Positions 8,535-12,005 of a stretch of DNA of 45,588 nt are shown in pieces. The notes under the pieces were generated by a model that was given only the letters and a program-made list of their open reading frames with translations, made no database searches and was not told where the DNA came from. The DNA comes from Syntrophus sp. GWC2_56_31 (GTDB lineage: Bacteria > Desulfobacterota > Syntrophia > Syntrophales > UBA5619). The stretch lies in the NCBI GenBank assembly GCA_001829875.1, contig MICN01000115.1, positions 1-45,588 of the forward strand, in the 5' to 3' direction. The position numbers and the translations under genes were made by a program. Numbering within the stretch: position 1 is the first letter of the stretch; every line of letters starts with the position of its first letter.

Positions 8535-8672
8535 CCATAAAAAAAGCGAGACTTCAGTATGACAACGACCGTCACACCGAAAGTCTCGCTGATTGGCTCG
8601 CACCAACGGCAAGGCCAGGCTCTCGCCAGCATGTTGACCTTGCCCGGGCAGCTACTCCCCTTCAGGGCGGAT
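8535..8672 (-). promoter_or_regulatory. yybP-ykoY (Mn2+) riboswitch
   Basis: Minus-strand sequence GAAGGGGAGTAGCTGCCCGGGCAAGGTCAACATGCTGGCGAGAGCCTGGCCTTGCCGTTGGTGCGAGCCAATCAGCGAGACTTTCGG. It carries the conserved GGGGAGUAGC 5' box and AGC(A/G)AGAC(C)UUU 3' box of the yybP-ykoY family as I recall them from the L. lactis and E. coli examples. It lies directly 5' of a UPF0016 gene, a known associated gene class. Confidence 0.8.
8539..8590 (-). terminator. intrinsic terminator forming the riboswitch expression platform
   Basis: On the minus strand, AGCGAGACTT (rc of 8581-8590) pairs with AAGTCTCGCT (rc of 8545-8554) and is followed by a T6 run (rc of 8539-8544). The 5' arm is the conserved 3' strand of the aptamer. 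Confidence 0.7.
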
Positions 8673-9994: not shown

Positions 9995-10353
9995 ATGACA
10001 CCTCCTCTTCCTAGTAATTACAGGTCAATGGGTCTTCGTACGGAACCCGCCCGACACAAACCCAACCGGCAGCGGGGTGATGGTAAGGGCGTTTTGGACG
10101 TCCGGCCATTGATTTGCAACCATGCAAGCTTGCGCTCCCCGAATGACAAACGGATCACGTGCGCGTGCACATATCAGGCCGTATGATTTTCGAATCCGCC
10201 GGGATCACCGCCCCGCTGTCGAGCAGGATGAAAATCGGAACCGGTTTTTTCGTTTCGGGCATGACCCTCATAGGGTAAGAGTCCAAGGGAAGCTTCTTTC
10301 GAAAGAGAGCGACAAGGTCCGTCCAACGGCGCGCAGCGTCCGCGCCATCGCCC

Positions 10354-10416
10354 GCATAACCGGCTGGCAATGGAGCGTAGTGGAATTGCCAGTCCGGGTT
10401 GATGCAGATGTTATGT
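10354..10416 (-). repeat. attC-like imperfect palindrome 1 (R' box degenerate)
   Basis: Minus strand: ACATAAC-ATCT-GCATCAAC-CCGGACTGGCAAT-(13-nt loop)-ATTGCCAGCCG-GTTATGC. It begins 4 nt after the hicA TAA stop. Unpaired extra bases (C, C, A) are all on the 5' arm. Confidence 0.5.
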
Positions 10417-10419
10417 CCA

Positions 10420-10596
10420 TTATTTCTTAAGCATCTTAAGGATATGCTTAGCTAATGAATCTCTAATCTCGTTATGTCGGAGGACAGGTTGCGATATTTT
10501 TGTCGCTGGATTTTGATACCAATCGTGGCGGCCTCCATGGCGAATTAAGACCCACCCGATCTCCTCAATGGCGTGGATTAAATCTTTGCGCTTCAT
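10420..10596 (-). CDS. hicA: HicA-family mRNA interferase toxin
   Basis: 58-aa ORF below the ORF-track cutoff: MKRKDLIHAIEEIGWVLIRHGGRHDWYQNPATKISQPVLRHNEIRDSLAKHILKMLKK, with the YcfA/HicA pattern (G-x-H core, C-terminal I..L..I.K..G-like tail). ATGA start/stop overlap with hicB. Confidence 0.85.
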   Translation of the reverse strand: MKRKDLIHAIEEIGWVLIRHGGRHDWYQNPATKISQPVLRHNEIRDSLAKHILKMLKK

Positions 10597-10784
10597 GCAA
10601 CGCGAAGCTCCCCAACATGAAGAACATTAGGTATGCTGCCGCTGGTTAATTCCTTGTAAATATCATTCAGGTTTTCCTTTAATTCATCAAGAGTCTCCCC
10701 CTGTGTTTTATAATCGGGGAACTCTTCAAGCCATCCGATGTACATATTTTCGTCCTGATAATAGACAAATTTTTTTGTTTCCAT
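10593..10784 (-). CDS. hicB: HicB-family (UPF0150) antitoxin, short form
   Basis: METKKFVYYQDENMYIGWLEEFPDYKTQGETLDELKENLNDIYKEL matches the HicB N-terminal fold pattern (...P.. .TQG.TL.EL..N...). AAGGTGA RBS lies 6 nt upstream of the ATG at 10784. The upstream part of the listed ORF is probably not coding. Confidence 0.8.
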   Translation of the reverse strand: METKKFVYYQDENMYIGWLEEFPDYKTQGETLDELKENLNDIYKELTSGSIPNVLHVGELRVA

Positions 10785-10876
10785 GGTTATCACCTTTATG
10801 AACGTTGGTTGTGCATAACAAAAAGCCCGCTGAGAACCCGTAGCAACCCCGTGATCCAGACTGGTTTGTTTTGCAC

Positions 10877-11149
10877 TCATTTCTTTACTTCACTCATAAC
10901 ATCTTCAAGCAAGTTGTGGAACCACTTTTTCTCTTTTGCTGCATTGACAAGAATCCGCTTCCAGATGGACACAGGTTCCGTAATCGTCGTTTGGCTGCCC
11001 CAGTTTAGCCTATGTTTCGGTTTTCGATAATAACCGATCCTTATCCATTCTGATTCTTTTTCATCCTTGAATTCGATGAGATCAACCACATCCCAATAGG
11101 GTACAGTACCACTTTCGTTAGTGCTTTCAACGACCGCCCGATCTTTCAA
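10877..11149 (-). CDS. hypothetical protein (orphan cassette-like ORF, non-ATG start)
   Basis: 90 codons with no in-frame ATG near the 5' end. The track start is TTG at 11149 with only a distant GGGAG. No recognisable motif, lower GC than the flanks, and possibly a truncated gene. Confidence 0.4.
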   Translation of the reverse strand: MKDRAVVESTNESGTVPYWDVVDLIEFKDEKESEWIRIGYYRKPKHRLNWGSQTTITEPVSIWKRILVNAAKEKKWFHNLLEDVMSEVKK

Positions 11150-11268
11150 GATGCCATGTTTGTCTCCCTCATTTCCAGGATACTTGAAAGAGACCCTTCT
11201 TCATATACAGGATAGAATCTTATGTAGTTCATCGGTCGTAGGATCAGTCCTACTTAATCTTCCTTCAG

Positions 11269-11330
11269 GCATAACGCTCTGCATAACCGGCTGCCGCGAG
11301 TGGCCGTGCGTGTTGATGCGGTTGTTATGG
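11269..11330 (-). repeat. attC-like imperfect palindrome 2 (complete R''-L''...L'-R' architecture)
   Basis: Minus strand: CCATAAC-AACC-GCATCAAC-(24 nt)-GTTATGC-AGAGC-GTTATGC. The TAA stop of the nucleotidyltransferase gene (11325-11327) lies inside the first box. Confidence 0.55.
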
Positions 11331-11943: not shown

Positions 11944-12005
11944 AACAGGACTGCGCACACCAGTCGGTCCACGATTCAGAACACGGGTGTAAATTGGATG
12001 GCACT

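Follow-up and report, generated by a model that had tools for sequence, protein, structure and literature searches.

A probable decayed chromosomal integron with two gene cassettes downstream of uvrC in a Syntrophales genome

Downstream of uvrC in Syntrophus sp. GWC2_56_31 (GenBank assembly GCA_001829875.1) lies a small islet of minus-strand genes that carries two candidate integron recombination sites (attC), the two gene cassettes that these sites close and the last codons of an integron-integrase gene (intI). The DNA analysed, called the window here, is the 45,588-nt stretch formed by positions 1 to 45,588 of contig MICN01000115.1. An earlier note, made from the letters of the sequence, had described the islet at 10342-11330 as a cassette cluster with toxin-antitoxin (TA) genes and no integrase. 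That range does span both sites and the second cassette, but the first cassette extends to 11945. The features of the locus, including its open reading frames (ORFs), are as follows.

12152 to 11985, minus strand: conserved non-coding element, about 165 nt long, lying between the stop codon of uvrC and the intI vestige
11994 to 11944, minus strand: intI 3' vestige (last 17 codons), abutting cassette 1 and co-directional with the cassettes
11945 to 11275, minus strand: cassette 1, 671 bp, from TTATGG after G11946 to the G of the site 2 R' box
11943 or 11916 to 11707, minus strand: antitoxin-like ORF of 69-78 aa in cassette 1, overlapping the 149-aa ORF
11774 to 11325, minus strand: 149-aa ORF resembling a minimal nucleotidyltransferase, in cassette 1
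11330 to 11269, minus strand: attC site 2, complete, with R'', L'', L' and R' boxes all present
11274 to 10349, minus strand: cassette 2, about 926 bp, starting with TTATGC and ending at G10349 of site 1
11149 to 10877, minus strand: orphan ORF of 90 aa, in cassette 2
10876 to 10811, minus strand: imperfect inverted repeat (GTGCAAAACAAA...TTTGTTATGCAC), located after the orphan ORF and before hicB and containing GTTATGC
10784 to 10593, minus strand: hicB-like ORF in cassette 2, with a sub-threshold UPF0150-like match
10596 to 10420, minus strand: hicA in cassette 2 (Pfam PF07927, 6.6e-10)
10416 to 10345 (sequence read to 10342), minus strand: attC site 1, a member of a 75-nt family (family A, described below) that has lost R'
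10348 to 10052, minus strand: right flank of the array, including a 71-codon ORF (10370-10155) reading outwards from site 1

The bottom strand of an attC site folds into a hairpin in which R' pairs with R'' and L' with L'', the spacers between the boxes stay open and extrahelical G or T bases mark the strand. The integrase, IntI, cuts between the G and the TT of R', so that cassettes are excised as circles and re-inserted at the attI site. Both sites in the window lie 3' of minus-strand ORFs, 850 bp apart, and the two palindromes in the earlier note were reproduced on the minus strand in box order, spacers and coordinates. Site 2 consists of R'' CCATAAC (11330-11324), the spacer AACC, L'' GCATCAAC (11319-11312), a 24-nt centre, L' GTTATGC (11287-11281), the spacer AGAGC and R' GTTATGC (11275-11269), with the crossover in R' (G|TTATGC) between 11275 and 11274. 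Site 1 has R'' ACATAAC (10416-10410), the spacer ATCT, the same L'' (10405-10398) and L' GTTATGC (10360-10354). Its L' is followed by GGGCG-ATGGCGC, reading ...GGGCG|ATGG in place of ...GGAGCG|TTA, and the proposed absence of GTT at R' can thus be read directly from the sequence. The attC order R''-spacer-L''...L'-spacer-R' with complementary boxes is complete in site 2, and in site 1 everything but R' is present. The TAA of the 149-aa ORF lies inside R'' at site 2, and the hicA TAA (10422-10420) lies 3 nt ahead of ACATAAC at site 1. The motif GCATCAAC-N10-40-GTTATGC occurs twice in the window, at sites 1 and 2, and had a match in 0 of 100 dinucleotide-preserving shuffles of the window.

When the bottom strands were folded as DNA, R' and R'' as well as L' and L'' paired and the 4-5-nt spacers remained unpaired. 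All extra bases in these folds, in site 2 and in the family A consensus that stood for site 1, fell on the 3' arm: an extrahelical G (G47) in L'' plus a TGCGT bulge in site 2, and extrahelical T52, A56 and G60 in the consensus. The site attC_aadA1, folded likewise, has extrahelical T38 and G45 on the same arm. The folds of site 2 and of the consensus agree with the earlier expectation that the extra unpaired bases occupy a single arm. The folding energy of site 2 is not unusual relative to shuffled sequence (z about −0.9), and the case for it therefore rests on architecture and homology rather than on stability.

We used covariance models to examine how the window sites score against other attC sites. 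A query with attI1 matched more than 5000 plasmids at 99% identity or above, from which seven class 1 arrays were taken; the first model (R1) was made from 15 class 1 attC sites of plasmids that aligned cleanly at both ends, its structure being limited to the R-box and L-box pairs. Searched on both strands of the window with filters off and E up to 10, R1 gave a single match, over its full span, at 11269-11330 on the minus strand (18.0 bits, E 0.034). This match is of modest significance, but it falls on the coordinates claimed for site 2 and comes from a training set that held nothing from the Syntrophales lineage. Site 1 was not matched by R1, as would be expected of a site lacking R'. A second model (R2), made from 59 environmental-array sites that include homologues of site 1, gave 37.4 bits (E 3.3e-7) for site 2 and, with a gap opposite the GTT, 22.2 bits (E 0.0024) for site 1; no other match in the window was significant. 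An Rfam scan of the whole window at gathering threshold returned nothing, the attC sites included.

Homologues of the window sites were sought by scanning 185,579 species-representative genomes with the pattern CATAAC-N3-6-GCATCAAC-N10-40-GTTATGC, which gave 78 loci. About 50 of these share a near-identical element, family A (gCATAACAACCGCATCAACTCGGACTGGCAATTCCGCTGCGCTCCATTGCCAGCCGGTTATGCGGAGCGTT), and site 1 has 85-92% identity with its copies. Mutually unrelated ORFs end at family A (vsr-like genes, short-chain dehydrogenases/reductases (SDR), methyltransferases, cupins, GNAT and many hypotheticals), with their stop codons within R'' or a few bases ahead of it. Across 39 copies, conservation is near-total from R'' to the GTT and collapses on both sides; GTT is present at R' in 31 copies, and four of the eight that lack it retain the G. 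At six loci a full-length IntI, 44-49% identical to IntI1 (residues about 7-330), is encoded 1-3 kb from a family A site. R1 recovers co-oriented attC arrays next to IntI in three loci (L017, L059 and L077), scores family A sites at 17.6-26 bits, a range that covers window site 2, and finds arrays of further, different attC sites in IntI-linked and many other loci.

The boundaries of mobile units can be read from an SDR cassette found at four loci, whose homology begins exactly at G|TTATGCG and stops at the family A G|TT; in front of it stand two distinct attI regions and two distinct attC sites. With a crossover at the G|TT of R', the 5' end of a cassette should complement its own R''; the SDR cassette shows the G|TT boundaries, and cassettes 1 and 2 of the window show the complementarity. 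Among the 59 environmental sites aligned to the model, the L box is 95% paired, and five of its six pairs show compensatory changes. Pairing is less frequent at the outer R-box positions, which is to be expected if every recombination swaps the 3' part of R'. Judged from these sequence patterns, family A is a genuine attC family.

The cassettes of the window can be delimited in the same way. GTTATGG (11946-11940) complements R'' of site 2 (CCATAAC) at 7 of 7 positions, and cassette 1 is therefore taken to run from 11945 to 11275; for cassette 2, GTTATGC and R'' of site 1 (ACATAAC) are complementary at 6 of 7. A stretch of cassette 1 (11937 to 11281) is 88% identical to an unrelated metagenome-assembled genome (MAG) labelled Pseudomonadota (L038), in which the homology is restricted to the cassette and is preceded by another attC. 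Homologues of both cassette 1 ORFs are present in L038 and in one further locus (L056), and a hicB-hicA pair following a family A attC was also found elsewhere (L032). Two attC sites are supported, and the genes accordingly make up two cassettes, a TA-like pair and the orphan ORF with hicBA, rather than three.

The hicA assignment is solid, whereas hicB stays below threshold and the nucleotidyltransferase label is weak. The 149-aa protein carries the motif GG..A....G..R.TGDLD and has its best database match in PDB to an AbiEii/MenT-type protein (E 0.05); neither the nucleotidyltransferase-like nor the orphan protein had a family-level match in Pfam, NCBIfam and PDB searches. The low GC content that had been noted for the islet (0.41-0.47) stands out against uvrC (0.62-0.67), but the gap to the Fe-S gene on the other side (0.46-0.52) is far smaller.

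No intact intI was found in the 45.6-kb window by tblastn with seven IntI proteins, which agrees with the earlier note as far as a whole gene is concerned; what it had overlooked is the 17-codon stump at 11994 to 11944. By tblastn this vestige is 71% identical to the C-terminus of the integrase of a complete integron (IntI_L065) and 65% to IntI1. Its DNA is 81% identical to a longer intI pseudogene at the same syntenic position in a related contig (L169), and it is fused straight to the G|TTATGG of cassette 1. The L169 fragment (TFRHSFATHLLE) spans about 57 codons with a frameshift and a stop; compared with the integrase C-termini, it reaches 82% identity with IntI_L065 and 74% with IntI1. Beyond it come attI-like TTATGCCGATCC repeats and then a G|TTATGTG junction. 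In the complete locus, L065, intI, an attI about 175 nt past the intI stop and the cassettes all lie on one strand.

No attI-like repeats were found in the window, which therefore lacks both the functional intI and the adjoining attI that define a complete integron. It does contain two clustered attC sites with no integrase gene nearby, as is required of an attC-site cluster without an integron-integrase gene (CALIN; at least two clustered attC). The earlier description as CALIN-like is accurate in this formal sense. However, since the intI vestige abuts cassette 1, the locus is better regarded as a decayed integron than as an orphan cassette cluster.

We compared the uvrC side of the locus with relatives, namely contigs whose UvrC is 83-88% identical to that of the window; by its UvrC relatives the organism belongs to the Syntrophales. 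The islet is not invariant. In L174 (UvrC 87% identical; GDT1-MGMT neighbourhood 84-89% identical in DNA to the window) uvrC is directly joined to the GDT1 leader and the islet is absent, which indicates that the whole stretch from 12155 to about 8711 is a presence/absence polymorphism. This indel takes in the conserved element, the intI stump, both cassettes, 300 nt that are unexplained and the gene for the 387-aa Fe-S protein. In three assemblies with an identical UvrC the islet is present at no less than 99.8% identity. Other relatives hold different cassettes at the same place: downstream of uvrC, L170 carries a Gabija-like OLD-TOPRIM and UvrD pair and BrnT, L171 carries AbiJ (AbiJ_NTD4), Phd/ParE and others, L169 carries small hypothetical genes, and L172 carries HEPN and metabolic genes. 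R1 also gave some attC matches in the uvrC-adjacent islands of relatives, the best of them in L170 (23.9 bits).

The conserved element (about 165 nt) recurs with 77-83% identity in L169, L170, L171, L173 and L175 and is absent from L174 and L172. These five relatives and the window all diverge after ...TTCAATCG. In relatives the element marks where the variable region begins on the left. It had no Rfam match and showed no covariation. A promoter reading of it was withdrawn, as its TTGACA and TAAAAT hexamers are only 9 nt apart. One possibility is that the element is the left end of the integron platform, another that it is an island attachment region. On the other side, uvrC, GDT1 or the islet was near none of 80 metagenomic loci with Fe-S homologues (42-86% identity), and no empty site can therefore be defined from the Fe-S side. 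The Fe-S gene also seems to be displaced at its position in the window.

Together, these results suggest that the islet is a decayed sedentary chromosomal integron of a Syntrophales bacterium, situated downstream of uvrC, which software would call a CALIN; we put the probability of this reading at roughly 0.9. The original layout was probably of the 'inverted' type, in which intI is transcribed towards the cassettes and the order is intI, attI, cassettes. A deletion would then have taken nearly all of intI together with attI and joined the last 17 codons to cassette 1 at G|TTATGG. This would have left two cassettes, each closed by an attC: a TA-like two-gene module, and the orphan ORF with hicBA. 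No integrase is encoded in cis, and the terminal site is without GTT. Excision of cassette 1 in trans, through site 2 and a partner upstream, would still be possible. Cassette 2 has probably become fixed. The TA modules might plausibly stabilise the region.

Several observations weigh against this reading. The vestige is only 17 codons long, has an E of 0.004 in a small search and leans largely on synteny with L169, and all comparison genomes are MAGs or metagenomic contigs. R1, a class 1 surrogate, gives site 2 an E of only 0.034 and has no match at site 1. At its 5' end, cassette 1 has a boundary about 29 nt off that in L038, and GTTATGG may partly be residual intI sequence (compare CCTATCGATGG in L169). 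Cassette 2 contains three ORFs, an unusual number for a cassette unless erosion has removed an internal attC, and the right flank of site 1 is unexplained in origin.

Erosion of a former attC might account for the inverted repeat that lies between the orphan ORF and hicB. As a third attC proper this repeat was rejected: it had no R1 match, its R2 match (8.1 bits, E 9.7) is on the wrong strand and its fold has a z of −0.9. The right flank is GC-richer. Its 71-codon ORF had no Pfam match, and the flank showed no similarity to Fe-S upstream regions or to the attI regions of relatives, against which no alignment score exceeded shuffled controls.

The junctions on either side of the array can also be read as the trace of an insertion, in which cassettes that had never belonged to a resident array were placed by a trans-acting integrase at a non-canonical genomic GWT site (attG), perhaps within the last codons of an already truncated intI. 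The left junction would then be CCTG|TTATGG and the right one G|ATGGCG, and the empty site before insertion would have read ...CCTGATGGCGCGGACGC... / ...CCTGATGGCGCGG.... The right junction does retain a G followed by AT, in agreement with the G|WT cleavage consensus that has been reported for insertions into genomes (10.1101/2022.09.11.507474), and four of the 39 family A copies likewise end in G followed by something other than TT. Joining the flanks gives CCTG|ATGG, similar to CCTATCGATGG at the end of the L169 remnant, but this resemblance amounts to 4-8 bases, and the right flank has no similarity to the sequence that follows the intI remnant or attI in L169, L065 or other relatives. Moreover, a plain deletion from intI into the array, with erosion of the terminal R', yields the same junctions. 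We therefore consider insertion by an integrase in trans improbable.

It is far less probable still that the palindromes are not attC sites at all but repeats of the repetitive extragenic palindrome or bacterial interspersed mosaic element type (REP/BIME), intrinsic terminators or TA operator sites that resemble attC by chance. Both sites are at gene ends, where terminators are expected, and the folding energy of site 2 is no better than that of shuffled sequence. Yet there are two copies only in 45.6 kb and none in other intergenic regions, neither hairpin is followed by a T-run, and site 2 is precisely what R1, with its class 1 training set, singles out. The earlier note had named a generic dispersed REP as one of three outcomes that would speak against its proposal, none of which was obtained; the homologues stand at the 3' ends of unrelated ORFs, in co-oriented arrays and next to IntI genes, with boundaries delimited by G|TT. 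Copy number, the lack of a T-run, the linkage to IntI and the R1 match effectively exclude the REP, terminator and operator readings.

The decayed integron proposed here can be compared with several known systems. The origin of small CALINs is debated, with decayed integrons on one side and cassette insertion at genomic secondary sites on the other. The window resembles a CALIN (PMC4889954) in its two co-oriented attC sites within 1 kb, the absence of an intact intI nearby, its small promoter-poor cassettes and an array as short as in most CALINs; it differs in that an intI stump abuts the array. Cury et al. (2016; PMC4889954) found an intI pseudogene near only 15 of 279 CALINs with a criterion of more than 50% profile coverage. 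The stump in the window falls short of this coverage and would be scored as 'without pseudogene'. Because a 17-codon stump is too short for the usual pseudogene screens, integron-derived CALINs are probably undercounted.

In orientation, the vestige points to the cassettes as does the 'inverted' integrase of the Treponema type (PMC4889954), of which L065 is a complete example, although integrase and attI are deleted in the window. The same attC family also occurs with the usual divergent intI orientation, in L017, L029, L059, L067 and L077. The SDR cassette, at 91-94% identity, lies at the attI of the integron with co-directional intI (L065) as well as in two with divergent intI (L017 and L067), which indicates that both integrase orientations share one cassette pool.

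At the level of the sites themselves, the window attC sites share with class 1 sites (aadA1/aadA7, arr-3) the box order, the AAC/GTT cores, a 4-5-nt unpaired spacer, an extrahelical G in L'' and extra bases on one arm, and attC_arr-3 begins with the similar GCATAAC-AAAG-CCATCAAAC. They differ from class 1 sites in that R' is GTTATGC rather than a strict GTTRRRY, in their modest score of 18 bits on the class 1 model and in the predicted position of the extrahelical G, which follows a 4-bp L-box segment in site 2 and in the family A consensus but a 3-bp segment in aadA1. As to gene content, the putative TA-type pairs (hicBA and the nucleotidyltransferase-like pair) are like those common in sedentary chromosomal arrays, e.g. 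those of Vibrio (PMC13108822), but the nucleotidyltransferase-like toxin has no family-level match.

The locus is a further case of a well-known kind of element and leaves the general understanding of integrons unchanged, the vestigial integrase being a useful twist. Its value is as a clean example of how a CALIN arises by integron decay, with a relative that keeps a longer stump and attI in the same place. It also documents an attC family and both integrase orientations in Syntrophales/Desulfobacterota, which are poorly studied for integrons, and a uvrC-adjacent hotspot with defence and TA genes in relatives.

Family A sites that are near-identical, loop included, follow genes unrelated to one another in MAGs whose labels cover at least ten phyla plus one archaeon. 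The labels include Desulfobacterota, Nitrospirota, Cyanobacteria, Deinococcota, Acidobacteriota, Chloroflexota, Omnitrophota, Thermotogota, Planctomycetota and an archaeal bin, all of them bin labels for which contamination is possible. Tentatively, and with considerable doubt, such copies of more than 90% identity might mark a single cassette pool of very broad host range that derives from Syntrophales-type integrons in anoxic sediments, and frequent insertion by the integrase at non-canonical genomic sites in nature would then be what solitary copies of the site 1 kind, with G|AT or G|CT at the end, bear witness to. About one in five family A copies is without GTT at R' and ends, for example, in G|AT or G|CT. 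In other loci (L029, L072), several terminal family A sites have short GC-rich hairpins with CTGCG-type loops behind them.

Two minor observations concern the window and its closest relatives. In assembly GCA_003489585.1 (L001, 13168-13171) about 63 nt of the orphan ORF (window about 10892-10958) are missing while the rest is 99.9-100% identical; the gap may be a real deletion or an assembly artefact. At 8591-8666 on the minus strand, before the GDT1-family gene, the window weakly matches the Mn2+ (yybP-ykoY) riboswitch (19.1 bits, E 0.002, where the gathering threshold is 45), and this riboswitch-like segment is conserved in L174.

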